Of a DNA stretch of 64,000 bases, positions 6,765 to 49,169 are shown one piece after another. How positions within the stretch are numbered: position 1 is the first letter of the stretch; the number at the start of each line of letters is the position of its first letter. Origin of the DNA: Rozella allomycis CSF55 (Eukaryota); the NCBI GenBank assembly GCA_000442015.1, contig KE561158.1:1-64000 (forward strand), given 5' to 3'. Below the pieces are notes generated by a model. The model did no database searches, was not told where the DNA came from, and worked only from the letters and a program-made list of their open reading frames with translations. Position numbers and translations under genes: made by a program.

Positions 6765-7331
6765 ATGAGGACATTCGCAGTTATTCTTTCCGTTGCTTCG
6801 ACGCTTTCAACCTTGAATGCGCATCTTATGGCTGATATCCATGTTGTCAAAGAAAATCATGCCATAATGAAAGGCCATCATTTTGTTGACCATGCAGAAA
6901 TGGATATTCTGAATTCCGTTGATTTAAGACATCACAGCTTGAATCCTATCGCCATTAAGGAACATCATGATATTTCCGAAGAGATAAATGGCCAGAGGCA
7001 TAAATTATTGGGGTTTGACATAGTAAAGACAAGAGGGGGATGCCTATCGAGAAAAAAAGTTAATTCTTCACATAAGAAGAAGAAAATTTTAGAAGCTAAT
7101 ATAGTATCTGTTGAAGATAGCGAGAAGGCTAATTCGTCCTATATCACACCAACAGAAGATAAAGAGAAGGTTCTATTGGTTACGCAGTCAGTTATTGGCG
7201 AAGGGAACACTTTATTCCCAATGGAATACCTAAAATATATCATTCCTTTTGCATCGTTAGTTTTGGTCGCTGGTGTTGGGATGTTTCTAAAAAGAAAAAA
7301 CAAAGTACACTACACCCCATTAACCAAATAA
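6765..7331 (+). CDS. Hypothetical type I membrane protein with His-rich ectodomain
   Basis: Signal-peptide-like N-terminus, C-terminal TM helix, basic tail ending YTPL (YxxL). Confidence 0.7.
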   Translation: MRTFAVILSVASTLSTLNAHLMADIHVVKENHAIMKGHHFVDHAEMDILNSVDLRHHSLNPIAIKEHHDISEEINGQRHKLLGFDIVKTRGGCLSRKKVNSSHKKKKILEANIVSVEDSEKANSSYITPTEDKEKVLLVTQSVIGEGNTLFPMEYLKYIIPFASLVLVAGVGMFLKRKNKVHYTPLTK

Positions 7332-7658
7332 ATTCATTAATTTTTCCTGATACTATGAGTATGCTTCATGAATGTTATTTCGAAGTTGTGTATCTGATAT
7401 TCAATATTTGCCAATTATTGCTTTTGCCTTGAGGGCAAAGTATTTTCGTATTGTGCTGATTTTATCAATGAAACTTCCAAGGACAACAATTATTTTGAGG
7501 ACTTTTTATCATTATTTCTTAGCTCCAAATCGTAAAATGACAAAAACTAAAGTGTAGTAAACGCCAGTTTGGGCCAAGAATCTTTTTGATTCGTCACTGT
7601 TTCTGGTGAGAACCTAAAATGTAAGATGAAGAGAAGAACGGCACAATGAATTTATTAA

Positions 7659-10600
7659 TTAATTTTTTCTTAGAATATGCTTCATGAATGTAATTTTGAA
7701 CATGTGGATTTTTCTTGTGTCATTTACGATTTGAAGAGTGTGAGGTTCTACCTTCAAAGGGATAATCATTGTTTTTGAATCATAAGTAACATGATAACCT
7801 CTCTCTGATAAAATATCAATAATCATATCGATTATATGTTCTTCATCAAGCAATTTAATTTCACTATTTAAAGACATTACAGAGCATACCTTCTAACAAT
7901 TGTGCTCCCAGATATTGCGTGTCTCTTTATTGACGGGGCGACGTCTTTTTCAATAAAGGAGATGGCTTTGCGAAACAAGGATGAGTGAAGCATTTGATAG
8001 TTTTCTAGTCTTCTTATTAATTCCTATTCAAGGGTGAAGTTTAAAAATACTCTTCTAGCGTTTACACCAACCTGCGAAGCAAGTGGAATGTATTGGATGG
8101 CATCAAAAGTCGGTTGATCAAGCTCTAAGGAACTTTGATATTCAAATTCTTTTAAAATAATCTTCAACACATCGTCAATTGATCTAGTCGCATCAATTAA
8201 ATGAAATGGAAAGTGTTTTCGCAGTTGAAGCAATGAGCTATAATGATCCATGAATATTTTATATCTTTGTTTAGTCATAACAGGATCAAAGTCGGTTTGT
8301 CTTTCCGTAACAAGACGCCCTTCGCCAGTAGCTTTAACCTTTTTTGCTACTTTTACAACATTACTCTCTGATTGTGGCTTCTTGCAGCTAACCCTCGCTT
8401 TAATTGTCGTTCTACGCTGGTGGTTTCGTCAACATAAAGAACGCAAATTCTGAAAGAAGGGCGCCTTTCAAAACGAAAAAGATGTTTTTTACCTAAATCT
8501 GTCTCTGAATTTCGAATTTAAATAGATTTGTCTCAAATCGATCATTTTATCGTATAAGAGTTTCAACAATTCAACCTTTAAAGTAATATTAATTTAATTA
8601 TCAATACTTGTATTTCAGTTCGTGGAAATCCATCAATCAGAACCCCAGTATTATTGTCTCTTTCAAGCATTTGAGTCAATAAAAGTTCCAATGTTTCTGC
8701 ATCCGCTATTTTTATTGTGTATTTGGNAAAATCATTCACAAAAGCCTGTTTAGCCAGAGATTCCTTAAGGCTTCTTGTGTTTTGGACCAAGATGGAGAAT
8801 TCCTGGTCTTCCATTTGTATTTGACTCGTTGTAGCTGAGGCGCTTGGAGATACGGCACAGATAAATGACGCCAAGACATAATAGTAGCGATTATTTTTAT
8901 TTGATTTGCTTTTGCGATCGCTGCCTCTGTAGCTAGATGAGCAGCGATGTGCTTTTATAGTTGGACGAGTGATCATGGAAATTAATTTAACTCTGGTGTT
9001 TCTATTTGTGATCTGAAACTGTTTTAAATCTAGTTCTCGGTTTGTTTTGTTAGACCTTACCAGGAGGTGGGGGTCCGACGTTTTTATGTTTATCCACCGG
9101 CCTGGAGACAATATTCCGTTAGATGGAATATGTACCAGCCTTGTGTGTTTGATTTCACACCTGCACTCGTAGCTGGGTGACAGTGTCTTTTTGGATCCTT
9201 TGTGTGGTTAGGAGGGCCAAACAAAGGTTCCATTGGAGTGAGCGTTACATGGGAGATTAAGTTCACGCTAATGTGTTTTGTATTAAAACCGAAACTTTGT
9301 AGTGTTGTTTCGTGGTTCGTGTTGGGCCTTCCCAAGAGATGGGGGTCCGGCATATTCCTTTCTCCCCACCGTCCTGGTTGGAATAGTCCGTTAGTTTGAT
9401 TATTCCGTAGCCAGCTCTTTTGTTTGTCAAAAGCACCCGTAGTTGTGTGGCGATATTCATTTATGACCATTATTTGGTTAGGAGCGCCAAATAAAGGTCC
9501 TTTTACACTTTGTGGATACTTGTAAGTTGATTGATGTGGTTTGTGNNNNNNNNNNNNNNNNNNNNNNNNNNNNNNNNNNNNNNNNNNNNNNNNNNNNNNN
9601 NNNNNNNNNNNNNNNNNNNNNNNNNNNNNNNNNNNNNNNNNNNNNNNNNNNNNNNNNNNNNNNNNNNNNNNNNNNNNNNNNNNNNNNNNNNNNNNNNNNN
9701 NNNNNNNNNNNNNNNNNNNNNNNNNNNNNNNNNNNNNNNNNNNNNTAAATCCCTCAATGATATAACCGATGATATTCGAGAATTATCTTCATTGAATTTT
9801 CATGCAGTCTTGAAGAAGAATGGTATAAACACAAAGAGAAGTAGCGTTTTAAGAGAGATATGCGATATACAGCATTCTTGTCAAAAAATTATCATTGTTT
9901 TTGCTGAACAAGTGGGAATAAAGAAGAAGGCGAACTTTCATGGACCTTCATGTTGTACCAGGGATTCTCATCCCACTTCTCAGATTAATTATCGTAGAGA
10001 GGAGTCATAATTCTCAAAGGACCTCTTAAAACTGACAGATCTCTATTCTGATACTATTTATAGAAAGAATGATACTATTTATAGTCTATAGAATGAACCA
10101 ACCAAATAAAACTCTAAGGAGATATTCAATAAATACATCACGGGGACAGAATTCAAGCGTAGGAATGTTTGAAGAGCAAACAGCATCCAGCAAGGCCCGA
10201 GCATCTTCATCCGCGAAAACAATGGTATTTTCAACATTCTCAGTATTGGAAATGGCCGCGGAAGACTTAANGGTGCATCAAAGAAGGAATCATTATCCAA
10301 TTCATCATCGAATAAATGCGTATCAGAGGGTTGAAGGAAGCTAGTATGACTGTATGAGGATGAAAGGAACCTACCATAATACCATTTGTTTAAACATCAA
10401 AAATATTTTTTATTTAACGGAAGGGGAAACCATTCGTCAAAATCACATCCAAGCCCTCCTGAAATTTCAAAGACATTAAGCTTTAAAATAAAATACCGCA
10501 TACTGAACACGTGGTTATAAGTTAAAGACTTTAAAAGACCAACGCCCTCTCCAGAAACAAAGAAATAAAATTCCGAAGTGGCTTAGCCACTGAGGCCTTA

Positions 10601-11445
10601 CCAAGCCATCAGTTTGGGGTGGGGTGAGAGAGCGTACGTCCGTACGCACAGCCACATAAGCTATTTATATAGGTTTTTCTATTTTCTAAAAATATCTTAT
10701 AATCTAAATATAATTTTATTATTTTTCTTAAACATACACTCACATATCTATATCAAAATGAAACATACACTCACATTTGTCACAAAAATAAATATTTATC
10801 TTAACTTAAATAAATAAAAAATGTATCCCAGTACTTTTCGTATCCTAGTGTTCTCTTTATCTTACCAAGCCTCATAATCTATTGACGCATATTAAAGACT
10901 GAGATAAGTTATCGCCGGGGGACGCCCCGTGANACAAATTAGCTCTCCTTTATCAATTTTATCTTTGTATTTGGCCATTAATAACTCGCTTATAATAATT
11001 GGTTGATTGTGGATCCCTCTAGCTCTCATAATGGAATCTGAATGTGTTCCTTTCCCACTAGCTGGTGAACCTTTCACTTGATGATATGAATGCAGATTAC
11101 CCATCAGCCAGACAATCTCACTGGGCATGCTCATGTCCACATCCCCGTTTTCTTGTTTTTGTGACATATTCTTCCAAACGTTTTCAAATATTAATCTAGG
11201 TGTATTAACACTATATCGTTCCTTTGGACAATTTTCTCTATTTATATTAATTACTAGGTAATTTTCCCATCTTTGCTGTTCAATGATTCAACTAAATTCG
11301 CGATATTAGGCTGTGTTTCTATTTTACCAGCGAAGCTTCTCGAGAGAATATTTTGTTGTAATATACCGCCTGTAAAGGAATGGGACTTTGAGAGTATGAT
11401 CTTAAAGGAACTAGATATACTCGTCGGTTTTAATAGCCGAAACAT
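7659..11445 (-). CDS. Atypical long adenylate/NMP kinase with mitochondrial-type presequence; one intron holds 8727-10933
   Basis: GSPASGKGT P-loop, VLIDGFPRT, EFEYQSSLELD, IDILSERGYH; N-terminus MFRLLKPTSISSSFK. Confidence 0.82.
8728..9545 (-). mobile_element. Fragment of a non-LTR (LINE-like) retrotransposon: start of APE endonuclease preceded by a duplicated ~95-aa domain
   Basis: MEDQEFSILVQNTRSLKESLAKQAFVNDF resembles the APE N-terminal [IL]xxxNxRxL motif; bounded by assembly gaps. Confidence 0.55.
10571..10878. repeat. Interspersed repeat, copy 1
   Basis: Near-identical to 13124-13392; starts with the hairpin AGTGGC-TTA-GCCACT. Confidence 0.85.
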
Positions 11446-11552
11446 TGACAAATATGCCAACGCCCAAAAATAGAAGGTCACAAATGTTTGTTTATATCAA
11501 TAAAGCTTAAGTCATAGAAATGCAATAAACCTGAAATTTCCGTCTCACATAT

Positions 11553-12748
11553 ATGGCGTGGACACGCTTTAAGCAAACAACAAGGGAGGCGCTGGGAAAA
11601 TCAGAAAAATACACTGATATTCCACCTGACATTGAAGAATACCATCTAATTACTGAAAAACTTCTTTCTATATACCAAGACTTGGCTGGAACAAAGCCTT
11701 TACAAGTTGTTAAATCCGTGGCATCCAGTTCTTCTTCAAATTCATTAGCTTCAATTTCAAACAGTTGGAATTTATTATGTTCATTAAAGCAGCCAGGGGG
11801 TAAAGATCTAAACCCATCATGTGTTTCGTTTATTCAAGAAAGTGCTACCGTTATAAAGACAATTGATGATTTCAGGGTAGTATTTGAAATGGAACTAGAA
11901 GAAAAATATTCAAGGACAATTAAAGATGTCATTAAGATGTGCAGGGATGCTGAACAAATATATGAAAAGATAAAGTCGCGAAGATTAGAACTGGATAGCA
12001 AGAAATACCGCTTAGAACATAATACCAAAGCTATACCTGACAAAGTTGCCCACTACAGAAACTCAGTGGAATTACAACAGGTAAAACCAAATTTGATGAA
12101 AGACAGGAAAAATTTGAAAGCTCTTGTGCTTTGTACAGGCAATTAATGGAAACTTTGTTTCAAGAGAAAGCATATCATGAGCTTCATCAAGGATTAGTTG
12201 GTAAGCGACACCAAATATACATGAGTTAGCGGTTTACTTGACTTCAATGCGGAAATATTACAAGGCATCGTTGGAGAAATTAGAAAATCTTGACAAAAAG
12301 CTTGACTGGAATTCAGCGCTTTCATTTGACAGGACATTTCTAAATAAACCAGAAAACGTCATAATGATGCAAAAATCTGATTCTCAAAGTTCAATACAAT
12401 CAATTGAGGATTCTCTGGGTAGAACTAAATTGTCCAACTCTGGAAGTCTAAATGAATTTCCAAAAAGAAAAAGCCAAGAATCGCTCGATTCTTTGGCATC
12501 AAATAGTTCAAAGCCCATAGCGAGAAAACCACCTATTCCTGTAAAAACATACCCGAAAGTTATTGCTCTTTATGATTTCAATGGAGTGGAAGATGGAGAC
12601 TTGTCTTTTAAAAAGAATGATGTTATTGAAGTAACGAAAAAAGATGGCGACTGGTAATAAAGAGAATTTTGATATATGAAAGGTGGGATGGTTCATTAAA
12701 CGGTCGGAAAGGAATATTCCCTAGCAATTACGTTAAATTTATTGAATA
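11553..12748 (+). CDS. BAR-SH3 protein (endophilin-like; 3 introns)
   Basis: KIKSRRLELDSKK BAR signature; SH3 VIALYDF...DLSFKKNDVIEV...WW.G...GIFPSNYV. Confidence 0.85.
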
Positions 12749-13123
12749 AACTATAAATTCCATATTAATTACATTATGTTTCCGATAGCGTCACATTATC
12801 ATGTAAATGTTACAGGTTAAAGACAAATTATCTGAACTTGATAAAACAAGATTGAACATTAATAGCCCTTTCAAAAATCTATATATCCCATTCGGCATTC
12901 TTTGCGAAATGAATATTCAATTTAAAGTAAACTTTCAGGATATTAATCTTAATATTGGTATTTGGTATTTAAGAATCTCCAATGGCTGAGACCTTCTTTT
13001 CTCCGACATGGTCCATATTTGGCTTCTGTTCTCCGAAATGGTCATGTCGTTGTCGGAGAAAGGAAGCCTATTATGTCTCTTAATGAATGAGCGTAAAACT
13101 ATAAACGCAGCGATTACAAGAAG

Positions 13124-13392
13124 TTCCAAAGTGGCTTAGCCACTGTGGCCTTACCAAGCCATCAGTTGGGGGTGGGGTGGGAGAGCGTACGTCCGTACGT
13201 ACGTCCGTACGCACAGCCACATAAACTATTTATAGGGTTTTCTATTTTCTAAAAATATCTTATAATCTAAATATAATTTTAATATTTTTCTTAAATAAAT
13301 AAAAAATGTCTCCCAGTACTTATCCTATCCTACTGTTCTCTTACCAAGCCTCATAATACACTCGCATTTGTCACAAAAATAAATAATATTTA
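13124..13392. repeat. Interspersed repeat, copy 2 (extra GTACGTCC-type unit, internal blocks reordered)
   Basis: Direct alignment by eye with 10571-10878. Confidence 0.85.
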
Positions 13393-15328
13393 TTTTTATT
13401 ACTAAGATATAGCTGTAAAATAATCACATACTACATGATCAACTAACAACTTATTAGCCACTTCGGGTAAGAGCGGCTAAAAGCCGGTTACAAGTCTAAT
13501 TTTTGGACCTTGAGAAAATTCATAGGAGAATAATAGAAAGAATAAAACCAGGAAACAGAAAGTAGGTTCATTTCTGGAAACATACTTCTTTGGAATTTGA
13601 CAAAATCGAAAAATATTAATTTGAACACATCAGAGACTTGGAGACAAAGTCTTGGGAGAGAAATAGTTGGTATTACTGTCAATTGTGTTTATTGTGCAAA
13701 ATAAAGTAATTTAATTGAATTTTTTTACCCGGTTCTAGGTGAACCAGGCAATAGGAAAGATTGCGATCAGTATAGACATTACTGAGCATGAAGAGTAGTA
13801 GATAATTCTAAATAAATATCTCTTTTCAAAATCAATGTTATTTGTTGGTACATTAAAATATGTTTTGAATTGGACAAAAATAAATATTGATTTCATTAAA
13901 GAAACCTTAGATTGGGATTCTAACTAATTTGAAATCAACAGAGATTACGCTTCAACTTGTTGCATTTAAATTAATATCTACTCCTCCTCATTCCGAGTAA
14001 TGTCAATACTGATAGCAACCTTCTTGATTGCTTGGTTAAATAATATCTTCGTGTGCAAATTCAATTAAATTCTTTATTTTTATCAATGCTAATTCTGGAG
14101 GCACAACAAACACAACAGGAACAATTAGCAAAGCAACAATTTGCCTTCCATTACCTTGTTTCCAAGTTTTAATCCGTTCAAAATAGCATGATTCCATAAT
14201 TCAGATTTGCGGAAAACAATTCCATTTTTTCTTGTGAATTTTTCAAGATTCAAAATTTCTCTTGCATCTAATACATTCATGATAATCTGAGCCGCCGGAT
14301 GTAACAATTTGTTGTAGACTTTTAGAATTTTAGAAATGGTTGTATTGAATTTTTTCAGTTGAGCATTCTGGAACTTTACATTGTAACCTTTTTATCAGTT
14401 TTTGTTAAATTCAATTTCTCTACAGAAAGTCTTTGTCTTTTATCTAATATATTTATCCCTTGCAATTTGCATGTCCATTAAGCAGTACCAACAATAAGAT
14501 AAATCATCCAACTCCTGTAGTCTGAAACAATAAAACTCCGTCCTTCTATTTCTTCAAACTCCTCCATATTTCAAAATATTATCAACCTTCTCTTCTTTTG
14601 TATACATATCATTAAAGGCTTTCCTCAAAGAGTATATGTCCCATTGGGCCATTGATGCCTTTGTCTTGTAACTATTGAACCCATGTCATGGCCTACCATC
14701 CAGTGGCATCCACGCTATTAAGTTATTAAGTTCTCTTTCTTTGTTAGAGTCGTTTCTACTCGGTCTACAGAAGTTTTACATGTTATTTTCAAAATAATTG
14801 AAAGAGGAAGCTGTCGGTAATGTCAATCTTGGCTTATTCTTCAGACTCGCTCTTTTCATTACAGGGGTTATTCCAAGGTATAAACTCACCATCATGATCA
14901 TCAAGATTATTTACAACTTTGACATTTACGATAATTTTGACTTTATTTCCTAAAATACGGAATACCCTAACGAAATTTTATTAATTTGAAATGAGGAAGA
15001 CTTGACGTCAATCAACCTATAAAATATAAATTATAATTAATCAAATTTTCATTGAATGAACACCTTCATTAAAGATTCCTTGACATTATATGATAAATCC
15101 AAATTCAATTACCAGAAAATAATTCTGTTACTGTGAAACTGAAATTATTACTCCTTCCTCCTAAGATCTCCAAAGACGGGGTGCCCTATTTTTATGCTAA
15201 GCTGTACCCGCGGATAATGGATAATTATTATTAAGGAAACGAATGTCTACTCACTCTTAGTCTATTGAATAGAATCTAAATTATTCCGATAGTGCCATTA
15301 TCTCATACAAGCCACTTTCGATTTTTGA

Positions 15329-16497
15329 ATGCTAAAAAGTGACTGCAAAAAGGCATTTGAAGATTTTGTTTTTAACATTCAATCAACGTTATTTGATAAT
15401 ATCGTTGACGAAGAATATTTACAAAACTGTGTATGTTTTTTCTCATAGTATTTTTAGACCGTAGTTCTAACGCCTCCGATATATGATGAAGCAATATTTG
15501 AAAGAGTTTGTGCAAATACATGCGGTTTTCCTTGTTGCCAAAACAAGCTCAAAAAATCTAAAGGATGGCAAACATTTGAAGAGGAGTCAACATGGTTCTG
15601 TTCCAAGACGTGTAGGCAAAAGTCCTTTGAGTATAAAAGTAAATTAAAAAGTATGCCAATCAATGAAAGATTAATGATGTAAAAGTTTAAGATGTTTAAT
15701 TTAGGAAACAGGGCAATGTTGTAATAAAGGGATTCGAGAATTTTGCTCTTTGGGACGAGTTTAAAGCGAAATCTGTAGAAAAACTTTCCGAAAATCTGGC
15801 AGATAATTTGATGATTATAGAAAACTATTCTCCAGATGAAAGTAGCGCCGACCTTTCTCAGTCATTTTTATTAGAAAAAACAGAAGATGCATTCTATGCA
15901 GAAATTAATGATGAATATTACGATGATAGATGTTTATATAATGTTTCTGAATGCGTGGGTGAAAGTTCGGATGAGAGTTCCAGTTCGCCACTGAAGGCGA
16001 AGCTAAGCGTCTTTGGTCGCATTTTGACTTTTTTTAATAATGCAATTACTGAAAACACGATTCTTTTTCTTAATGATAAACCATATTCCGACTTGGTCAC
16101 AAATGTGAACGTTCAAAGGACAAATTTAATGTACAGAGTACTTTCCCCTTGGTAATTGATGAATTATTGATTTCAAATTAGTATACGTGAAATAACAAGA
16201 AATTTTGAAGGTTTAGATGAATCAGACCTGATTACCTTTATCAGGACTCTAGAATGTCCACCGAAATTCTCATTCACATATTCAAACAAAGAAGGATTTA
16301 TTGTCATATTCTTATTGATTGATCTGTAAGAATCGCTTTATATTTATCTAATTTTTAGGTTATCAAGGAAACGTCGGACGATTGCAAATTATGATACGTT
16401 AAAACAATGGACTTCACAAAAAGTCAAAAATATTATGAAAGAAGATTTACTTTGCGAACTTTGTCGGAATCTAAGTAGGACGTGTTTTAAACAATAA
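15329..16497 (+). CDS. RTR1: RPAP2/Rtr1-like RNA Pol II CTD phosphatase (4 introns)
   Basis: Spliced YDEAIFER...CGFPCC...FCSKTC, the RTR1-type zinc finger. Confidence 0.78.
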
Positions 16498-16521
16498 AAA
16501 ATTATGGCTTAGATTTTTTAA

Positions 16522-16875
16522 ATGTCATCAATAGACGTTCAAATAGAATTTACGTAGTGTTATTTCCTTATTAAAAATGATAGTGGTGGACTTGAAACTC
16601 TTTTTAGCAACCAAAGAAATATTAATTTGACGGTACCTTCGAACACCAGCATTGCAGAACTGTTGACTATTCTAAAGACAGACCATCTAACTGGAAAACC
16701 AGAGTTGTTTTTAAGTGGGAATACTGTGTAACTAACTTATGAAAGCTTTACTTTTAGCAGACCTGGTATCTTAGTGTTAATCAATAATTGTGATTGGGAA
16801 CTAGAAGGAGAAGCAAAATACATAATTCAGCCAAAGGATTCCATAGTTTTTATTTCAACTCTTCATGGTGGTTAA
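16522..16875 (+). CDS. URM1: Ubiquitin-related modifier 1 (2 introns; absent from the ORF track)
   Basis: [18 protein letters not shown]...[16 protein letters not shown]...FISTLHGG*. Confidence 0.95.
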
Positions 16876-16952
16876 AATAAATTTCAACGGACCGTAAGGT
16901 CATTTTTTGAAAATTCTATAGCTAATGTATTTCCCCTCATATTAACTTGTTA

Positions 16953-17080
16953 CAAAAAGGGCTTTGAATCATGAACTTTGATTCCACGAGGCTATAAGCA
17001 TCGTGCAGCATCGCCATCAAGAGATGCTGGAAGCGTAATGTTTGGATCAGGCAGATGAGATTCGCTTAATTTCGTCGCCT
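16953..17080 (+). ncRNA. U11: U11 snRNA (minor spliceosome)
   Basis: 5' AAAAAGGGCTT; four-way junction closed by GCTTT/GAAGC; SL3 ATCGCCATCAAGAGAT; Sm-like AATGTTTGG; 3' stem-loop AGGC...GCCT. Confidence 0.88.
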
Positions 17081-17101
17081 CTTTATTTGGATTTTTCATA
17101 A

Positions 17102-17822
17102 ATGTCTGTCAACAATTTTGAAGGTGAATACAGAGCTACATCAGACATTCAAATTCGCGAAATCTTGGCAAATTTTTGGAAAACACATAACTTAGTTGTG
17201 GAATCGCAACCTGTTGATTTTAAAAATCATCAACTGCCGTTAGCGAGAATCAAAAAGGTCATGAAAATAGATAATGGGGTTAAGGTAATTATGCAACTTT
17301 ATAATTAATTTAGATGATAAGTGGCGACGTAAGTTGATTTAAGATTGTGATTTAGGCCCCGATCCTATTTGCTAAAGCATGCGAATTGTTTATTCTAGAA
17401 TTGACATTAATGTCTTGGCTTCAAACTGAAGAAAATAAGAGACGTACATTGCAGAAAAGTGATATCTCTGCTGCAGTAGCAAAAAGCGATACGTTTGACT
17501 TTTTAATCGACATATTACCGCGAGACGAGCTAAAACCAGTTAAAAAGGGCGACGTAAAGGATAATATTACATAAAACATAGTATGGAATGCTTGATCCAA
17601 ACGAAGCTGCCTTATTTTATCAGCAAAACATGGCCTTTGCTGCATCAGTAATGCGAACCCGGTAATATGATAGGGACTTGGAAATGCACATTTAATGGGA
17701 TTTCCACATAATGCAGTTCCCGAAGCTGATAAATATATTGTAAGAATTGATTAATTGTGGTTTTTTAGGACAGAGAATCCGAATTCAGTAACCTAATAAA
17801 TGGCGATGGAGAAACGGAATAA
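17102..17822 (+). CDS. HAP5: NF-YC/Hap5 histone-fold subunit (5 introns, 15-nt microexon)
   Basis: [16 protein letters not shown]...[22 protein letters not shown]...[11 protein letters not shown]. Confidence 0.93.
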
Positions 17823-17912
17823 AATAGGTATACGTCTATCTAAGCACGAAAAATGCTTGAAAAGCTCCTTTGAAAATAATTTTATTTTTGACAGCATTTT
17901 CCTTTAGGTTTC

Positions 17913-19125
17913 TCAATTTCTAGCTTCCAATTGTATGCTTTCTTGATTTGAAAATGATTTCGACATTGATTTATTTTCACTGACTGATATTTTGCGATGA
18001 TCATTCATTGTATCTTTAACCTCTAGATATGTTTTATCTCCTGTTAAAGATATTTTCTTTGACGTTTCAAATTCATTCAATGCAGCTTTGCCTTTCTGCG
18101 ACCTATGAGATTTAAAACTAATAAGTTCTTATTACGAAATTGCTGATTCTGTTCTCCCTGAACTGTCACTTTGTTTGGACTTATTTAGCTTTTCATGGAT
18201 TCTTTTAGTCTCGGTTTTTCTAGCGTATATAGGTTTCTGCTGACGCCAAAATTCAGTTCTACTCTCAAGATACTGCAAACCCTCGTTAATTAAATCACTT
18301 AAAGAATCGTTTGGAGCAAAATCAGGATCATCAGCTAACTTTTGTAGATATTCTTTATCAGCATATAATTCGCCTAGAAGTTGTTTTTCATTGGCCTCTC
18401 TTTTTGCTTGAAGAGCAGTGTCTACAACTTTTAACTGAGCTACACTCTTTTTGACATCAATCACTGTAGCTCTAGCCATTGACTTCTTATCATTAGTTTT
18501 AAGCGCTGATGGAGTGATAAATGGCGTAGACATAGTATAGCTATCAGATCTTTGGCTATGAATGGGTTTTAGCTGATATTCCTTATCTTTTCAAAACGAC
18601 TCTATCTCATTACTGCCAATAGAATTATCTATAGCTTCTTTGGCCTTTTGTATTCCTAATCTGAATTCATCTAATTCAGGTCGTAAATTGTGACCCCGAT
18701 GGTAGTAAACAAGCGCCTTTTCAAATTCACCCATGGAATAAAGCGCTTCAGCTTTGTACAGTTTCCCCTTCAAAATTCTATGGCAATTAATTTACTTTGA
18801 AAAAGTCCTTGTCTTCTTTAAGTGACGCTTCTGCGTCAGAAAGCGCTGCTTTAGGATCTCCGAGTTGTAAGTGGCATTTTGCTCGTGACACTAGGCAGTT
18901 CTTATCTGTTGGTCTATGTAATAATGCCATTAAATAATATAATATACTTCATACTTTGGTGAAAGCCTCCACTGCTTTTCTTGGATCACCTTGCTTTGCT
19001 AAAAGGTCCCCTTCCGCCTGGAGTGATTGGAATGAAGAAACTGGCCCATCATTTCCTGATCCGTCGTCGCCTATATCATGGTTCTCGTTATTAACGGGGG
19101 GTGTATTTGAAATAACCTTCGCCAT
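17913..19125 (-). CDS. TTC25: Outer dynein arm docking TPR protein TTC25/ODAD4 (N-terminal-type short form)
   Basis: KAEALYSMGEFEKALVYYHRGHNLRPELDEFRLGIQKAKEAI; LLGELYADKEYL; RTEFWRQQKPIYAR. Confidence 0.9.
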
Positions 19126-19225
19126 GTAATGGTTACTAGGTAAGCTTCAACTAAATAAAAATAGGCCACAAGTTGATAAATTATGTCCAAGAATCTTAAA
19201 AAGAGTAAAATATATTTAATTATAA

Positions 19226-20123
19226 TTAATTCTTGATAATTTTTTGTTCTCCACTCCATTCCTCACATGGCGCCAATCGCATGTAGTTTTCAACATTCCC
19301 CGGTTCAACACAAAACATATTTTTGTACTAATAAAATATATAAACTTAATTTACGCTTTCATCTCCAAAGTCCGCCATTGTCTTTGACTTTTGAATCCAA
19401 GGATTCCACACGACAACATCAGAGAACCCATTCAATTGAAGGGTAATATCAAAATCACCAGTTTCGAGATGTAAAGATTCCGGAATTGAATAGTAGCGAC
19501 AATCAACTTCTTTACCAAACGTTATTGCCTCATTGTTTTCCACTCCGTTTTGTCTAGTCAGGTCGTCACAAAATGAAGCTCCCTTTAAACCTTTCACTCG
19601 AACATTTGCAATGTCAGAGGTATAAAAATATGTATGAAATAAAGTTTGGAATTCAAATACGCTGTCTCCGGTATTCTGAACTCTTATTCTGGTTGTTAAT
19701 TTGTCCTTAAAAAGTACTACATGATACGTAAGTTTAAAGGAGTGTGGCCAAAGTTTTCTGGTAGTTTCGTTATCCGTCAATTCGAAGGATGTCTCAATAT
19801 AATCTTTACATTCATTCACATTTTTCGACCATGTCCAATCAATGTTCCTGGCAAAGCCGTGTTGAGTAGGAATTTTTCCTTTGCCAAATTGAGCTAAATT
19901 ATAAAATATGAATATTCTTACGAAATACCAATGGAATACCGCCCCTAATTGGCTTTGATTTGTCAAAAAGAGCTTTATCAGATAAGAATAGTATCGTTCT
20001 ATTTTGCAATGTACAATGAGTGATTGTCGCTCCAAATATGTGGATGTTACAATAGCTCTGGCCAATGCTTATTTTAACCGAGTCTATGTTTCCATTTTCA
20101 AGCTTTTTGATTTCAAAGGGCAT
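19226..20123 (-). CDS. Glucose-6-phosphate 1-epimerase (aldose epimerase family; 2 introns)
   Basis: PIRGGIPLVFPQFG, QHGFARN, LFHTYF, DVVVWNPW, FCVEPG. Confidence 0.9.
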
Positions 20124-20144
20124 CTCGAATCAGATATTTCATAA

Positions 20145-21149
20145 ATGGAAATAGACCCTAAAAAAGAAGAAAGAAATGAAGATGATGTAAAGGAGCCTAC
20201 AAAAGTTGAAGACATCAAGTCGAAATCATGGTGGGAGACTCTAGCGACCACTGTCATACAAACGGTAAAAGCAATGCAATTATTGAAATAGTCTAATTCA
20301 TTGATAGATCAATACAAAGATGATGTTAAAGATTTAGTTAATACTGTTGTTCAAGAAGCTAAACCAGAGAGAGTGAAAGAAAACTTGAGAAAGATATTCC
20401 AAGATGACTCCACTGAAGACAACAATAGTGATCAAGGATTAGCACTTCCTTCATTATCTCTTCCGAATTTCGCAATACCAAAAATTGAAAAGCAACAAAT
20501 TGACAATTTATTGAATAAAGTCACGGAGAACATTACGAATTTTGTAAATGATTTAACAGGCCCAGATTTATCTGAAGAAGTGAAAAAGTTCAACTTGAAT
20601 GAATCTTTTTACCTAAACCCCATTGAATCAATTGACTACAAGAATTACGTAGATTCGGTAAATATTGAAGACAAAACTACAGAAATATCTAAAATTCTTC
20701 AAACCTATCCAGAAGTTTCAAATTTGTTTGGCAGATTGGGTAAAGAATAGTCAGAAAGAGAAATAGTACCTGAGAAACTTGAATACAAAGAATTTTGGTG
20801 TAGATTTTTCTTCCATGTTGAAAAAACTGTTCTTTTTGAAAACAAAGAGGAAGTGGATCAGGAAGTCATCACGGATACTTGGACAGGGCTAACTGTACTA
20901 TCACCAGTGAAAGAGGAAGGTGTTCATGACCTAGAAGGAAAGACAAAAGAGATGTTAAATTTACCGCCAACGCTAGATCATGAATTAATTCAACAAGAAA
21001 AGCCATCCCCTGGCTTGCTTGGAGTGGATGATTTGGATGATCTATTAAAGGATGTAAACATTGAAGTAAGCTATGCGATTCACGATTTAAAGGAATCAAT
21101 GAAGGAGAACGAAACTAAAGACGATGATGAATGGAGCATTTCGGATTAA
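20145..21149 (+). CDS. BSD-domain protein (Dos2-like; 2 introns)
   Basis: ISKILQTYPEVSNLFGRLVPEKLEYKEFWCRFFF; acidic C-terminal DDEW. Confidence 0.8.
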
Positions 21150-21292
21150 GAATTCATTTGAAAATATGATTGATTATTAATAAAGATGATCACAAATATA
21201 TTATTTTTGATGACAAATATATTATTTTATCCCATAAGATAAATGAATTTGAGAATCGAAATTTTAAGTTGGAAATTTCTTTAATAGCTTTG

Positions 21293-21438
21293 ATCAAAAA
21301 AGCCAGGTGGTCTTTGCCATAGTCCTACTCTGTTACCGGGTTTGGTCTGTCATAGATCACCGCGATTAAGTATATCGTGGCTAAGGAAATCAAATTCTTA
21401 AATTAATAAGATTTCTGAGCCGAGAAAGCCACACATTT
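21293..21438 (+). ncRNA. Candidate structured ncRNA of unknown family
   Basis: GC-rich island with three-way junction and G-U pairs favouring the + strand; PSE-like motif ~62 nt upstream. Confidence 0.45.
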
Positions 21439-21465
21439 AATTAAAATAGTTTGAGAAAATCTGTT

Positions 21466-22807
21466 TTATTTTGCTTGGATTATTTTCCCCGAACAAGAAC
21501 CAAAACCAACTACGATTTCGCCTTTTTTGCACATTCCACGAATAGTAACCAAATCGCCATCCTCTAGAAATGTTCTCTCTGACCCATCTTTCAAAGTTAC
21601 AGAATTCTGACCATTCCATGATAGTTCCAGCATAGATCCAAATGAATCTTTTGTAGGCCCTGATATTGTCCCAGTTCCACATAAATCACCGGGTCTCATA
21701 TTACACCCATTAATTGTATGATGTGCCAATTGTTGCTTAAACGTCCAATACATGTGCTTTAGGTTAGATTTGCAAACAACAGTTTCTTCATTTGATTTTT
21801 CGGCTATATTGTGACTTCAATTCTTTTACGCTTAATAGACACTTCTAATTCGACATCATATGATCCCGATTCTTTGTCTTCCAGGTAAGGGAGTGGTGTA
21901 GGATTTTGCCTCGGCCCTTCAACCAGAAAAGGTTCCAAAGCATCTAAAGTAACAACCCACGGAGAAATCGTAGTCCCAAAGTTTTTGCCGAGAAAAGGGC
22001 CTAATGGAACATATTCCCATGCTTGAATATCTCTAGCACTCCAATCATTCATGAGAACAACGCCAAAAATATGCTCGTTAGCATTTTGAATTGATATCGA
22101 TTCACCCAATGCATTTCCTTTCCCAACAACAAATGCCATTTCAAGTTCAAAATCCAATTTCTCGCTAGGCCCAAATTTAATTGAGCCATCTTTAGCCTTT
22201 TTCTGCCCATTTGGCCTCCTTATATCGGTGCCAGATAATACGATAGATGATGCTCGGCCATGGTATCCAACGGGTAAATGGACCCAATTTGGCATAAGCG
22301 CATTTTCAGCACCTCTAAACATGGTACCAACATTTTTAGCATGCTCTTTCGATGCGTAAAAATCAGTATAATCCCCAATAGTAAATGGAAGATGCATTTT
22401 AACAGCGGTTAATGGAATCAACACGTCTTTCATTAAAATTTCATTCCCTGATATGGTCTTATTTTCTTCTGAAAGTAAATCTTGTAATCTCCTTCTAGCT
22501 TCTTGCCACGCTGGTCTTCCTAGAGCCATGAATTTATTCAATGTCGGCTTTTAAATGATATTACGTTTCAATTACCTGTGAAAACACGTCCTCTGAATGT
22601 TGTCGAAGAATCGGTCCATTAAATAGTGACTTTATTGCCAATAAATTACAATCCACCACAAATTCCCCAATCGCTACACCTACCCTAGGTTTCGGTGTAC
22701 TCTATAAATTAAGAAATGGGAAACTATACGGCTGTAGAAAATATCCCGAAAGGTATGTTATGTAAAGTAAATCCCGAGTCCTTTGGTATTGAAACGAAGC
22801 TTTTCAT
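21466..22807 (-). CDS. FAH: Fumarylacetoacetate hydrolase (3 introns)
   Basis: [52 protein letters not shown]. Confidence 0.97.
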
Positions 22808-22889
22808 AATTGATTTCAAGCCACCAGAAACCTGTAAATTAAATCGAAGTTTAGTCGATAAATTTTTAAATATTTCAGCCGTGTCCAAC

Positions 22890-22974
22890 CCGTCCATAGC
22901 TCAGTTGGTAGAGCGCGTGACTGTAGTGTCTCATAGTTATCATGATGTCCCTGGTTCGACTCCGGGTGGACGGA
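22890..22974 (+). tRNA. tRNA-Tyr(GTA) with 12-nt intron (22927-22938)
   Basis: Acceptor CCGTCCA/TGGACGG, D arm TAGCTCAGTTGGTAGAGC, anticodon stem CGTGA/TCATG, GGTTCGACTCC, downstream T-run. Confidence 0.95.
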
Positions 22975-23057
22975 CTTTTTGTTGATATTTATGATTTGCG
23001 GTAGGCAAGTTGTATTTTATGCATATATGATACAATTATATTTATTATAGTAGAAAT

Positions 23058-24246
23058 CTAAATAGTTTGAAGGTCTAAAGAGCTGGTCCATTCAATTAAT
23101 TCATCCACCTCCCTTTCTAGATCATCTTCTTCATCCTTTTTATGCTCATCATTTGTCTCTTCTAGGTTTACATTGTCATTACTAAGCAACTGAGATTTGG
23201 AGAGAGACTTCAATGAAATTTGTGAGGTCGCAGTCTGCAAGTTTTTAAGACTATCTTTAAGAATGTTTGAAATATTCATCACTTCTAAGTTCTTCAGTTC
23301 ACCTAGGGGTTGATTATTTTTTGTGATCATTATATCATCTTTAAGACTTCTGGATTTGGATATCTGAGTATCATTTTCCTTTTTAGACTGCTTTTTAGAA
23401 ATATTTCTCGCTTTTTTATTCCATACACTTTGTATAAGCGAGTCCATGACAGCCGTTGTATCCGTGATACATTCATGGCTTTCTGGAGAATTATTAGAAG
23501 AGGTAGCTAGCATAATCCAGGACTTATAGTAATCCGTATATGATATCATGATTTTCTTTTCTTTTCGAATAATTTGATCCACTTGCTTAATAATAATGTT
23601 AGCATCATTAAGTTCTTTCTCTATCTTTTGAGATATTAAATCAGCTACATTTAAAAAGGTTGTTCATTCATACCTCTTGCCCTCACAGACATAACGGCGC
23701 AATCACCAGCAAGTTGGTTGTAGTAATGGGGACTCTCTAGAAAAAGTTGTAGTGCTTCATTGTTGCATGAATATTCAAGTTCCGGCTCATGCAAAAGTCT
23801 CTATCAGAAACAAAACTGATTTTTACACTTAATTCACTCAACAGGAATGACATGGACGTTCCTTCTAACCAATTATTTTCACTCAACATTGAGCAGGTTA
23901 ATTGCCCAGTATCAGGGTTTACAAGTTGTATCAAAGAATTTGTATTACTATTTGGGTGAAAGGGAATTGTCATGTAACGTACGTGCGGAGCAATTGAATC
24001 AAAACGCTCTTCAAAGATAACCTCGAGTTCAAATACACCATCTGAGTATAGCATGAATTTAAGATATACTTTCCCAGCTGGTTCCTGGTTTGCCTTCAAT
24101 ATACACCTATATGGGCACATGATATTGCGTACCAACCATTCAAAGAAATTCCAATTGATTAATTCTACATTAATAAACGGTAGTGGATTTCTTTTTAGTT
24201 CGTTATAGTATTTTTCCAGTAACAAAAATGCTCTCGATGATGCCAT
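23058..24246 (-). CDS. E2 ubiquitin-conjugating-fold protein (UBE2U-like) with C-terminal extension (5 introns)
   Basis: Spliced W.VYIEGKPGTSWENGVF...TIPFHPNINPDTGQ...LLHEP. Confidence 0.8.
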
Positions 24247-24348
24247 GATAATTAATGGTCGCCATAGGGATATTTGATTTCGTCTAAAGTTCCAAACTTG
24301 TATACATCACCTATTACATCTAAGCAAATTTATTTAAACATTAACAAC

Positions 24349-25860
24349 TCAACATTTTAAGTTTTTGATAGAATCCAATAATAATGACAGGTCTGTTTGG
24401 ATTGTGTTCGCGTGTTGTAAGATCTTTTCCTTTGTATCAAGGACATCGATAGTTTGTGTGTACGGATTATACCTAACAGTGAACCCTCTTTCTAGTGTAT
24501 GGGAAAAGTTTCTGACTTTCTCTTGAGCGTCTTTAAAGCTTTCGGCAACAAAGTAAACTGGTTGATACTCTGTGATTGGATATTTCTGTACGCAAGTTTT
24601 GGCAGGATCGAATATTCTTTTCTCTGGTTTTGAAGTTAGACAGTACTATGTTGAAGAAAGACTCGAGTTCTTTACTTCCAATTCGCCAAATGATGAGAGT
24701 ATTCCAGCCCCGTATGCACGGTACGAGTCGCCCTCTTTGCAAAGGCCGAATTCTACTGTAAACCAGTATATCTAGCGATGAATAAAAAAATTTCATACTG
24801 TGGCCAATTTTTCAATATCTTCGTCAGATGCTCCCAATGAGCATAATCCAATTTCCTGTGAAAATGAGGCAAAGTTTGGATCAGCAAATAAAGGAACATG
24901 CCCTAATAATTCATGGCATACATCTGGTTCAGGCGTATAGAATGGCTGCGAATGATGTCTAATGTACTGAGTAGAGTGAAATACTCGGAAAGCAAGGCCA
25001 TTTAAGAAATCACGAGAACTTAATAGACCTGTCACTGGCCTTAGAGTAAAACCAGTGCATTCTAATCAACACCAAATAGTTTGATTACCTTTTAGAAACT
25101 TGGATATATCTTCAAGCTGGGGAATATTGTCTTTTGTATAACCGCAGTTCTGAATAAGCAGTGGAAAGACATATTGATGTTCACGACATGCATGTGTTGG
25201 ATACAAGGATGTTAACTTTTCGAATACTGAATGTTGTATACATAATTCGAGTAATACCTGTTCCCCATGTTCTAATTTCATCTTGAGTGTAATCAATTCT
25301 AGGAATTGGTTGACCACTAGTCTCATCAATTATCAAGAGTTACATTTTGTAGGTTTTCGCGATCATTGTTATTTCATCTCTTCTTTTTCTATATTCAGGA
25401 TCTTTGAACCCCTTTTATGTAATATTTTGATCAGTACCGGGTGGTCAGCAGATAATTCTGCCCCATATTGTAAAGTTTTGTTTGCAAACGAATCTAAATC
25501 CGAAAGCCTTCTCGGAAACCACGGAATGACTATCTTTTTCGAAACAATGAAATGTACTATTCTCGGATTTTTCGCTCATAGAGCCAATTAGTTTTATATA
25601 TTTAACCGCGGGTTTGATGGCATTCATTATTTTATCTATATCCTTTGGATCGCATAATCTAAATTCTATTTCAAAGTCATAGTCGAACTCTGATGTTTTC
25701 TATGAAAAGCGGATAAATAAATTACCGAAGGCCTAGATTCTATCCTTGACAAAGAAACCCCGACTCGCTTTATAATACCAAGTACATTGTCTAAAGCACC
25801 TATTTTATCGGTTATTGTAAATAAAATAGAATAAAATGATGAATTGTCTGGTTGAGGCAT
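24349..25860 (-). CDS. PAH: Phenylalanine 4-hydroxylase with N-terminal ACT domain (7 introns)
   Basis: [52 protein letters not shown]. Confidence 0.95.
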
Positions 25861-25987
25861 TGATCTACAAGTTGCTAAGGCAAGGGTAATTTGAAATAGC
25901 CTTTCATTAATAATCTGTTGACATGAATTAAACAAACGGTATTTTTAAAACCTTTTTATTTATACTTAAAAGAATGACGGCTCTATT

Positions 25988-27315
25988 TTATTTTAATATG
26001 TCTTGTAAAAACGACTTTACCTTTTTGACCGGTTTCTTTTGAATAGGCTCCTAAAGGTTATTACTGAGAGGTAAAACTACCTTTGAATTTCTCTTTTCTC
26101 CTACAATGATACCAGCGCTTTGCCTTTCGATTGTTGAAGTATTGAATGATAATAATCTCCGCAACTTTGACTTGTCTTGATTCAAAAGGACTCTAGAAGC
26201 TGAGCGGTTTAGCATTTTTTTATTTCTAGTCAATTGAGAATTTGATAGATCATTGCTATTGGATTTATTTGTGTTNGTCAAACAAAATGTCTGATTTCTA
26301 CAGTTGAGTGAAAAAAGGAAGCGTTACGTGCCTCTCAAGAAACTCTCTTTTTTCAAACGCTTCCTTTTGGTAATCAATTTGAACAGATTCACTTCGATCC
26401 AAATATTGCATTGTGTCTTCTTCAACTTGTTCAGCTTCCTCTGCAAACAAATCGACATTCTCATTGACGTGGCCATTCAGAACTCTTTTCAATATTCTTT
26501 CTTGAGGATCCATGAATAAAAATTCGTCATCATCGTCATCCATTAAGAGACTCATTTCTTTGTTTCTTTCCATCATTCTTCTTGTTTCTCTTAACCCATG
26601 TTTCAACCCATGTACTAACATTGTCGTTTCCTTTTTATCTTTTTCTTTCAATAATTGCCTTGTAAATAAATAGAAACAATTTTTACTGATGATATTCAAA
26701 CGCTTTTGGATCATTTGACTTTGAATTGTCAAGGGAAACAAATTTGGCCAATTCAGGATCGTTCATTGGATCTTCATCATCATCAGATGAATCAGAATCG
26801 TTTCCATTTATTATATTTCCTTCACTGTCTTCTTCAAATGCTTCTTTCTCCAAATAAGGTTTCAATTCCATTAATTTTTTCTTTTTCAATTTCTTTAATT
26901 GTTTTTTCTTTTCTTTTAATTCATTCTCCATCAATAAATCAAATGCTGTTTTTATTTTATTTTCTTCACGTTCGTCATCTTCATTGTCTTCGCCACTCTC
27001 CTCTTGGTTTGATTCTCCTTCACTTTCATCTTCATCAAATTCTATTTCCTCTTCTTCATCATTGTAAAATATTTCCTCTTCAATTTCTTCCAATTCTTCA
27101 GGATCAATTTCTTCTTCAAACTCTTCATTATCCACAACTTCCTCATTTTCTACTTCCATAGATTCAACTTTATCCAAGTTTTTAGCTTCTTCGATGTTTT
27201 CATTTATAATATCACCCTTTTCATTTTCATCACTCTCATTTTTATTAATATGCTCTCCAGGCTCTTCTTCACGTTGCGTTTCAAATTTTCCGGAAAGGAG
27301 TGAAATGTCACTCTC
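25988..27315 (-). CDS. MRC1: Mrc1/Claspin-like protein, 3' part (5' end lost at n27316)
   Basis: Acidic tracts, YLEKEAFEEDSE, DKKETTMLVHGLKHGLRETR resembling the MRC1 domain. Confidence 0.55.
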
Positions 27316-27316
27316 N

Positions 27317-27593
27317 TTCCCTGATATGGACTTATTTTCTTCTGAAAGTAAGTCTTGTAATCTCCTTCTAGCTTTTTGCCACGCTGGTTTTCCAAGAGCC
27401 ATGAATTTATTCAATGGTGGCTGTGAAAACACGTCCTCTGAATGTTGTCGAAGAATCGGTCCATTAAATAGTGACTTTATTGCCAATAAATTACAATCCA
27501 CCACAAATTCCCCAATCGCTATCACCTACTCTAGGTTTTGGTGTACTGGCAGTAGAAAATATCCCGAAAGGTATGTTATGTATCGTAAATCCC
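27317..27593 (-). pseudogene. Processed (intronless) FAH retrocopy fragment
   Basis: Matches FAH 22445-22777 with both introns precisely absent and a +1 insertion at ~27522. Confidence 0.88.
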
Positions 27594-38248: not shown

Positions 38249-38320
38249 GCCTTCATAGCTCAGTGGTAGAGCGCATGTCTTGTAAACATGAGGTCGGGTG
38301 TTCAATCCTCCCTGAAGGCA
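38249..38320 (+). tRNA. tRNA-Thr(TGT)
   Basis: GCCTTCA/TGAAGGC acceptor, CATGT-CT-TGT-AA-ACATG anticodon arm, GTTCAATC, downstream T-run. Confidence 0.93.
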
Positions 38321-39567: not shown

Positions 39568-42500
39568 ATGGACGACTCTCCAACCTCTTCCGCTGTGCAG
39601 CGAAAAAAGTCTCTTTTCCTTGAAAAAGTTGAACAATCCTACTTTGGTATCCTGTATACAATGGAGACGGTGGGCTCTGAACGACGCCGTGTACCCAATA
39701 CAATTGAGGCATTGGGCTTCCTTGTTCTTGATTTTCTCCAGTATATAGCCTTCTCTATTGTTCCTACTGCTTCTTGGGGATCCGTTTTAACTACCGTCAT
39801 TCCATATGTCCGGTTTTTCCACTTTCGCTTAAGCGACTATGTTGTCATATTCCCTGTCTTTCAAGTGTTTTTCTGGTTGTTGGTGTTCGCTACGGCCATT
39901 ACTGTAGGAACTTCAGTTTATACTGGGTAAATAGCCTTTTCAGTTAATATAGTTACTGCTTTTGGCGTAAGGAATACAAATTCATTTGGCCAATACGTGG
40001 GCTCCAGTTTACTGTATCCATCTTTTTCCGTCTGATCTTCATTGCAAGTTTGTCCTTAATAATTGACGGAACATTGTGCTATCAAGGTTCTCTAGTTCGT
40101 TTCTCCAACGTCCCGTGTGGTTCAGTCAATCACTATCTTCAAGCTACCTTTGGGATTATTGTGTTGTTATTTCTCATTATTTTTGCTGTGAGCAATCTCT
40201 TGATGGATATATCTTTTCGAAAAAGGCCTGTTGACTTGACCGTTACATCAAACCCGTTTTTCGGAACTGCAAATCTACTTGGGATAATATTCTTTTGTAT
40301 AAACTACAGTTTCCTTTCAAAAGCTGTTTACTCAGCTTTTTGGACGCACTTGCTTAACCTTATAGTCTCCACAGTCATGTTCGCTACACTCATATATTTT
40401 GTATCTTATCAGGTAAATAAGTACGTTAAAAGTTAACTTTAGCACCACTCAATTGGAAAAATAAGGTCGGGAATTCTTTTTGTGTTCGTGTTCACGAATT
40501 TTATGGCATTGGTGTCTGTCTTATGTGGAACGAATCCAAACTTTGATAATAGATTAGTCGATATTCTTCTATTTTTGGGACTTTTCCCTTGCTATCTCAT
40601 CGGATCCTCGATTTATAACATGAGACTTCAATATTTTAAGGTTCTTTCCAATGCAGTTCAAGATGAAATCAAGTCTACAACAGCCAGTGTGTTGAAAAGA
40701 CCGTCAGTAGACTCCCCTGATGGTTATGATGAAATGATTAAAGATGAATCGAGAGATGAGAATGTAGCAATTGACAATGCCAGCTTGTTGCCTAAAGCGT
40801 TAATGATGGCTAATATTAATGAATACACGTTAGAAATTGTTGCAAGATTATTGTGGATGACAGAAGGTCCAAATTACAATCCCACTGCTGCTAATACCAT
40901 TTATAAGAAAGGGAATGCAGCGTTTCCAGCAAGCTTTTATGTAGCGGTTGCTTATGTTTTCTTTTCGGAGCAAGTTTTTCCGTCCGAAAGACTTTCATTG
41001 TCGCTTCTTGAAGAATCCAATACCAGCTTGAAACCACGCTTTGATTTGCGCTTTTTATTGTTTAAACGCCAGATGGAAGAAATTCAAAAGAAAACTACTC
41101 AGGGCTATGGAACTGAAAGAATGGACTTGGTGGCATATGTTGAATACCAGAAATACTACAGGTAATATGATTTATTGTTATAACATTAAATAGTGAAGCA
41201 AAGAAATATCATGGAAAAGTATTGGCTTCAATCAGAAACTTTTGGTCTCTCTTCCTTAAAAATAATGTCCAATTTCAAGAATTTTCCGTTGCTACCAGAC
41301 TTATTGATACTCAAACGGCAATGGCTGACAGATTTTACAATGTTCTTCTTGACAAATACCCTAAAGCATTTCATTTACATGAAGCGTATGCCTTTTTTCT
41401 CGAAACAGTTATACTTGACTATGATAAGGCAGATAGACACAAAGAAGCTGCACGTGAGTTACAGTCGGCATCAAAGCAGCAAAAGAATGCTAGTGATATG
41501 CTATCTCAATCAAGCGGCGAAAGTGGCCAAGATGAAGATTCTTTTGATTCCAATTCTGTAATTACAATAAATGAATCTGGCCGTATTTTACAAGTCAATA
41601 ATGCTGTCCTCAACATGTTCGGTTACTCAAAGAAGGAAGTGCTCGGGGAAAATGTCAGCATGTTAGTTCCATCCCCTTATAAAGAAAACCACAATAAATA
41701 TTTGGACAGGTACAGAAAAACAAGGGAAGCAAAAGTTATTGGAAAAAAGAGAGTTCTCTATGGGCTTCATAAAAACGGATATATCTTTCCAATTAAACTA
41801 TCAGTAACTGAATCAAAAGGGCCTGATGGGAAAGTAGTATACATAGGAATGTTAATGAAATGCAGAAAATCTGAAGACGCTAGAGTTGGAACCATTGTTA
41901 TTAGAAAAGATGGAGCAATAATGATGGTAAATAAAAGAGCAATAGAGCTTTTCGGTTATAAACCAGAAGAAATGTATAAGAAGAATGTGAAGCTTTTGAT
42001 GCCTGAGGAGCATGCTGTCAGACATGATGGCTATCTCAATCGTTACTTGACAACAGGGGAGGCCAAGGTTATTGGAACTAAAGGAAGAAATGTAATGGGT
42101 AAGACCAAAACTGGAAAAATGATACCAATTTCCCTCGAAGTAAATGAAGAAATAATAGACGATGTTCAAATCTTTATCGGCTCCATTTCAGATGCATCTT
42201 TAATTGCCGCAACAGTTATCATAAATGTTAAAGGATCGATTCAAAGCTGTGACGAGAATTTTGTTAAATTGACAGGGTATGACAAAGACAAATTGATCAA
42301 TCAAAATATAAAAATGATAATGCCATATCCATACAGTGCATATCATGATTCATATCTTGAAAGGTACGCAGAGACAAGACAAGGTGTTATTGTTAATGAT
42401 GTCAATGGTCGTATTTTACAACTTCAACAAGCTGATGGTTCTTTGTTAACTGTACAACTGACTGTGACTAGTATTGAAAACGATAATGACATTTTGTTTA

Positions 42501-49117: not shown

Positions 49118-49169
49118 GAAAAATTTTCAAACAAGCCACGGTACTCTTTCCTATTTATCTCTTTCGGCT

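Follow-up and report, generated by a model that had tools for sequence, protein, structure and literature searches.

A full-length U11 snRNA gene in Rozella allomycis, probably serving a retained minor spliceosome

Introduction

The U11 snRNA is diagnostic of the minor spliceosome. It is transcribed by RNA polymerase II, carries an Sm ring and a trimethylguanosine cap, and pairs up with U12 in a di-snRNP, in which the AUCCUU core of U12-type 5' splice sites is recognized by base pairing with the free 5' end of U11, and the branch site by pairing with U12. The counterpart of U11 in the major spliceosome is U1, which also pairs with the 5' splice site via a free 5' end and likewise combines a four-way junction with an Sm site and a 3' hairpin. 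Rozella, which parasitizes water moulds, is part of the lineage that is sister to the microsporidia. Its small genome of roughly 12–20 Mb, with major introns of 26–27 nt, could be used to ask what a minor spliceosome is retained for and down to which length its introns may shrink.

According to the accessible text of a survey from 2023, minor introns or U11 occur in early-diverging fungi, i.e. in Spizellomyces, Neocallimastigomycetes, Rhizophagus, Basidiobolus, Rhizopus and Phycomyces (PMC10639083). According to the available part of another study, minor splicing was lost twice among fungi, namely in Microsporidia and in Dikarya (PMC6865273). An earlier note on the DNA analyzed here had stated the loss of the minor spliceosome in most Dikarya and in microsporidia, which agrees with these parts of both sources (PMC6865273, PMC10639083). 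As stated in its accessible sections, the survey comprised more than 3000 genomes, each of them searched with RF00548, RF00007, RF00618 and RF00619, and left out introns under 30 bp in all species; Rozella allomycis and Paramicrosporidium saccamoebae are among the species labels in the accessible part of its supplement (PMC10639083). Very probably, this survey has already scored the Rozella U11, if its assembly contains the gene. In the literature consulted, no statement on U11, U12-type or minor introns in Rozella was found, and Rozella is not named in the supplements of PMC6865273. The novelty that the earlier note had attached to a Rozella U11 was overstated, as the family is textbook knowledge, several early-diverging, non-Dikarya fungi were known before to have minor splicing, and the species itself has been screened with RF00548. 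With the fungi listed in the accessible survey text, Rozella shares that a non-Dikarya lineage keeps a minor-spliceosome RNA. It differs from them in its position as sister to the microsporidia and in its modal intron length of 26–27 nt.

Here, we describe a U11 snRNA gene in a window of 64 kb (the whole stretch of DNA that was analyzed) from R. allomycis CSF55. The features of the locus and of the remaining window are collected in Table 1.

Table 1. Features of the U11 locus and of the surrounding window. Positions are those of the window.
Feature	Position	Strand	Basis or remark
URM1 gene, upstream, 3 exons, two 30-nt introns	16522..16875	+	Pfam Urm1 PF09138: exon 2 E 6.4e-05, exon 3 E 9.3e-18
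TATA-like TATAGCTAA	16917..16925	+	about -37 from RNA start; read from sequence
U11 snRNA gene, 129 nt	16954..17082	+	Rfam RF00548 full-length match
Single-stranded 5' end AAAAAGGGC	16954..16962	+	identical to upper-case Rfam consensus
Four-way junction enclosing stem-loops I–III, closing helix GCUUU/GAAGC (16961–16965 / 17030–17034)	16961..17034	+	model and MFE/centroid fold
Stem-loop I, 6 bp GAAUCA/UGAUUC (16966–16971 / 16979–16984)	16966..16984	+	model and fold
Stem-loop II, shortened (5 + 3 bp), CACGA/TCGTG (16985–16989 / 17001–17005)	16985..17005	+	model and fold
Stem-loop III, 7 bp CAGCAUC/GAUGCUG (17006–17012 / 17023–17029)	17006..17029	+	model and fold
Predicted Sm site AAUGUUUGG (DNA AATGTTTGG)	17037..17045	+	aligned to the unpaired Sm region of the model; unpaired in fold
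3' terminal stem-loop, 13 pairs including 2 G-U	17049..17080	+	model and fold
NF-Y/CBF-type histone-fold gene, downstream	17102..17574	+	exon 3: Pfam CBFD_NFYB_HMF E 5.1e-07, Histone E 3.8e-09
Two fumarylacetoacetase-like genes flanking the hydroxylase	21466–22550 and 26683–27525	-	Pfam scan of ORFs
Biopterin-dependent aromatic amino acid hydroxylase	24349–25065	-	Pfam scan of ORFs
Two tRNA genes	22890–22975 and 38249–38320		Rfam
Large multi-exon gene, three PAS stretches and TmcB-type TPR region, 26–32-nt introns	39568–42916	+	Pfam and ORF joins

Identity and Architecture of the RNA

The whole window was scanned with the covariance models of all 4227 Rfam families at curated thresholds, as well as in a second scan with permissive filters and E up to 1. 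At curated thresholds, three matches were obtained in the window, U11 and two tRNAs. The U11 spliceosomal RNA model (RF00548) scores 78.1 bits at 16954–17082 on the plus strand, compared with a gathering score of 39 (E 2.1e-12). This alignment extends over model positions 1–134 of 134 and is not truncated, and a whole-model score of about twice the gathering score places the sequence within the family. The permissive scan recovered the same match and nothing else of relevance. The earlier note had read a U11 snRNA from the letters alone and had proposed the Infernal search with the Rfam model as a check, and its reading is borne out by this result and by the fold described below. The locus that it had indicated, 16953–17080, is the right one as well, with ends that are off by 1–2 nt. 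We consider it almost certain that 16954–17082 (+) is a U11 snRNA gene.

With the RF00548 family, the Rozella RNA has in common the 5' end AAAAAGGG, the four-way junction, AUCAAGA in the loop of stem-loop III and a 3' hairpin preceded by an Sm site. At the 5' end, AAAAAGGGCTT is read at 16954–16964, of which 16954–16961 (AAAAAGGG) represents the unchanged consensus; in the centroid fold, positions 1–7 form no pairs. In stem-loop III, the loop (GCCATCAAGA at 17013–17022, GCCAUCAAGA in the RNA) includes AUCAAGA at 17016–17022, an exact match to the consensus. In contrast, stem-loop II lacks 8 consensus positions of RF00548, the loop of stem-loop I carries a 5-nt insertion, and the Sm site, situated between the junction and the 3' hairpin, differs from the consensus AAUUUUUGG by one U to G change. 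The total length is 129 nt versus the 134 positions of the model. The upper-case, i.e. conserved, motifs of the RF00548 consensus are thus all kept: AAAAAGGG, AUCAAGA and, with one substitution, the Sm site. All sequence and hairpin elements listed in the earlier note were found within 16954–17080, and the variant Sm site that it had proposed is indeed present as AAUGUUUGG, one base off AAUUUUUGG. Judged from the sequence, the departures in stem-loop II, in the loop of stem-loop I and in the Sm site are ordinary lineage variation.

The same architecture is obtained without the Rfam model. An energy-only fold of the 129 nt reaches -41 kcal/mol (z -2.46 versus dinucleotide shuffles, with an equally stable fold in 2 of 200) and contains the helices of RF00548, i.e. 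a free 5' end, a 5-bp closing helix, three adjacent hairpins, an unpaired Sm stretch and a 3' hairpin of 13 pairs.

An environmental U11 provides a further comparison. A metagenome pattern scan that was built from the conserved motifs of the window U11 itself yielded 9 loci, one of which (L004) is U11 by Rfam, with 78.7 bits. Most of its stem nucleotides differ from those of the Rozella RNA, and the mean column identity is 74% in a plain alignment. Both RNAs have AUCAAGA, whereas L004 has AAUUUUUGG where Rozella has AAUGUUUGG. As the scores are equal, the window U11 is no weaker than another U11. The RNA family is well known, and the Rozella U11 is an ordinary representative of it.

Search for Partners and Substrates in the Window

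Neither U12 nor U4atac nor U6atac was found by Rfam in the 64-kb window, at gathering thresholds or with E up to 1, and a Pfam search of 82 translated ORF segments of the window (10 + 72) detected none of the protein families specific to the minor spliceosome. For a genome of this size class, 64 kb amounts to about half a percent.

The 5' splice-site motif RTATCCTY occurs 13 times in the window, with 9.06 ± 2.89 matches expected by chance, and the branch-site-like TCCTTRAY 20 times, with 12.71 expected. Ten of the 13 RTATCCTY sites read RTATCCTT. The assertion of the earlier note that no U12-type intron (RTATCCTT) is seen in the window is hence wrong if taken literally and right insofar as none of these sites is a credible intron start: each of the 13 is placed antisense to a gene, falls within an uninterrupted ORF or has no coding context. 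The RTATCCTY/TCCTTRAY pair at 25638/25743, for example, is antisense to a gene with a 26-nt intron at 25700–25725. The best-looking U12-type candidate, 39647–39741 (GTATCCTG...TTCTTGAT-N9-AG), falls within one continuous ORF that starts with the ATG at 39568 and needs no intron. A relaxed scan for U12-type introns down to 24 nt returned 38 candidates in the window, and none survived inspection. AT-AC candidates at 23323–23363, 24976–25107 and 40209–40246 were discarded as well, since they would break a continuous ORF or cut out part of a Pfam domain. Minor-intron densities are usually well under 1%. With only roughly 35 genes in 64 kb, the lack of a U12-type intron in the window is therefore expected and carries little weight.

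Proposed Function

By analogy with described U11 RNAs, the Rozella transcript would fold as a four-way junction with a 3' hairpin and bind an Sm ring at AAUGUUUGG. Within a U11/U12 particle, the AUCCUU core of U12-type 5' splice sites would then be bound through base pairing with the free AAAAAGGG, and this pairing would start the assembly of the minor spliceosome. The genome thus most likely retains a functioning minor spliceosome, along with a few U12-type introns that would be located outside the window. There are good grounds to regard the locus as a bona fide, intact and free-standing U11 gene that is probably functional and serves a retained minor spliceosome. It is likely, if slightly less so, that this spliceosome is complete; we infer the transcription of U11, its Sm and cap maturation, its partner snRNAs and proteins, and its substrates.

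Alternatively, U11 could be kept without a canonical minor spliceosome, be it as a recent relic, with partner RNAs that have been transformed beyond recognition, or in another role of U11. Such a situation would fit the window, in which U11 alone and no U12-type intron is seen. A precedent of a kind is Cyanophora paradoxa, which, in the accessible text of the survey, has minor introns, yet gives significant matches only to U11 (PMC10639083). Moreover, the microsporidia lost minor splicing according to the available part of PMC6865273. Loss of minor splicing may also be in progress in Rozella, as its microsporidian sister group lost the system, and the one-base departure of the Sm site from the consensus is a point against a working U11. 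Nevertheless, we regard a U11 without its spliceosome as unlikely. All functional motifs are preserved, and in score the gene equals the independent environmental U11. The 5' end, by which U11 recognizes splice sites, has kept the consensus sequence, and this can be understood only if canonical U12-type 5' splice sites persist in the genome. The missing partners mean little in view of the small fraction of the genome that the window represents. In addition, a useless RNA gene of 129 nt would not be expected to keep all functional motifs, given that it is separated from its neighbors by only 78 and 19 nt.

If a complete and working minor spliceosome is retained, its substrates could conceivably be ultra-short U12-type introns of about 30–45 nt or less, although we consider this rather improbable. 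Minor splicing among very short introns is known from Blastocystis, for which the accessible survey text gives a mean minor intron length of just under 42 bp and a median of 39 bp (PMC10639083). Blastocystis is, however, a stramenopile and not a fungus, and its minor introns have been found, whereas none were seen in the Rozella window. As introns under 30 bp were dropped according to the available sections of the 2023 survey, many such ultra-short U12-type introns could not have been seen there (PMC10639083).

Genomic Setting of the Locus

The U11 gene fills most of a 226-nt spacer (16876–17101) between two genes on the same strand. Between the stop codon of the URM1 gene (16873–16875) and the first A of U11 there are 78 nt, and the ATG of the NF-Y-type gene (17102) follows 19 nt past the last matched U11 base. 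With spacers this short, the U11 promoter must overlap the 3' end of the URM1 gene, and the promoter or 5' UTR of the NF-Y-type gene must overlap U11. The RNA starts with an A that is preceded by a C; this start context and the TATA-like TATAGCTAA are possible promoter features, plausible from the letters. The NF-Y-type gene contains a 29-nt intron, a micro-exon of 15 nt at 17314–17328 (MISGD) and a 27-nt intron, which together occupy 17285–17355.

Among the GTA...YAG segments of the window that connect open frames as candidate introns, the lengths show a sharp peak, with 10, 16, 6, 6 and 5 candidates of 26, 27, 28, 29 and 30 nt, respectively, while the other lengths between 18 and 119 nt are mostly represented by 1–4 candidates each and by at most 7. 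The introns of about 27 nt that the earlier note had described are thus reflected in a maximum at 26–27 nt. The tiny introns had prompted the idea of a ciliate-type genetic code, which was dropped, as the standard code leaves long ORFs open and HSP70 is fungal. In the accessible part of a study on single-cell genomes, R. allomycis shows the highest gene density of the fungal set, and fungal median intron lengths range from 29 bp upward (PMC8042348). The gene packing and the short introns of the window fit these figures, as far as they are given there.

Three DNA runs yielded contigs that bridge U11 and both neighbors, namely X1 (15158–18043), X3 (15309–18043) and X2 (16766–18635). The X1 contig differs from the window at 2 positions, 15631 and 16365, both of which are outside U11. 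These contigs show contiguity rather than independent confirmation, as the runs may include the source of the assembly itself. An RNA run (X9) gave only 9 partial pieces of 22–36 nt over 7001–27000, none of them on 16954–17082 and all continuing into unlike sequence.

Could the segment with U11 be of foreign origin, i.e. DNA of the host fungus or of a contaminant that was assembled into the window? Host DNA is a general risk with an intracellular parasite of another fungus, and the assembly has blemishes in the window, i.e. single Ns flanked by duplicates and a 200-N gap. The nearest N is, however, more than 6 kb away from U11, and the gene is bridged to both neighbors by the contigs described above. 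These neighbors, at 78 and 19 nt, carry the 27–30-nt introns that are typical of the window. The GC content is uniform at 32–38% throughout the window, with about 35% around U11. Furthermore, an intact HSP70 gene at 47171–49126 (-), 30 kb from U11, encodes a protein that, along 99% of its length, is 100% identical to one named 'heat shock protein 70 [Rozella allomycis CSF55]' by NCBI, the next-best full-length relatives being aphelid and chytrid proteins with 84–87% identity. On account of the neighbors with their short introns, the GC content of 35% and the identity of HSP70, the U11 locus is resident DNA, and a foreign origin is extremely improbable. The same holds for a match by chance and for a U1 snRNA that has diverged: U1 and U11 do share clan CL00005 and the four-way junction, but U11 is the best-scoring member of this clan at 16954–17082, an E value of 2.1e-12 speaks against chance, and the 5' end AAAAAGGGC is complementary to AUCCUU-type 5' splice sites and not to the GTA-type sites of the tiny introns.

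Other Features of the Window

A segment of 2.2 kb at 8725–10934, which includes the 200-N gap (9546–9745), is skipped by the contigs of the three DNA runs (joint 8725 to 10934) and reaches in places 50–100 times the word depth of its neighborhood. Its last ~360 nt (10568–10930) are repeated at 13121–13492 (region 13120–13492) with 81–97% identity, and this second copy is skipped in the contigs of the three runs, too. The ORFs of the segment have no Pfam match. Overall, the segment has the look of a dispersed LTR-like repeat, either polymorphic or collapsed. Single Ns at 38475 and 63905 are flanked by near-identical tandem duplicates of ~110–150 nt, with motif copies at 38450/38596 (-) and 63806/63917 (+); these duplicates look like joins that were left unmerged in the assembly rather than biological features.

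The hydroxylase and the two fumarylacetoacetase-like genes (21466–27525, -) may form a small cluster for phenylalanine/tyrosine breakdown. One of the two tRNAs (55 bits in Rfam) has an insertion of ~15 nt adjoining the anticodon loop; it was left unnamed by ARAGORN, which reported 'gtag', and is probably an intron-containing tRNA with the anticodon GTA. The other is tRNA-Thr(TGT). A match to the C/D-box snoRNA SNORD66 at 44535–44610 (+) remains below the gathering score (23.5 bits versus 32, E 0.55) and is probably due to chance.

Significance

Taken together, the Rozella U11 extends the known pattern of early-diverging fungi and comes as no surprise. A mild interest remains in its position next to the microsporidia and in the form that U12-type introns take where ordinary introns measure 26–27 nt. 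If a complete, working minor spliceosome with ultra-short substrates were kept, Rozella would have about the most compact fungal genome that runs two spliceosomes side by side. As an intact U11, the gene places the time at which the microsporidia lost minor splicing after they had split from the Rozella lineage, and if the minor spliceosome is complete, the loss would be dated to after this split.
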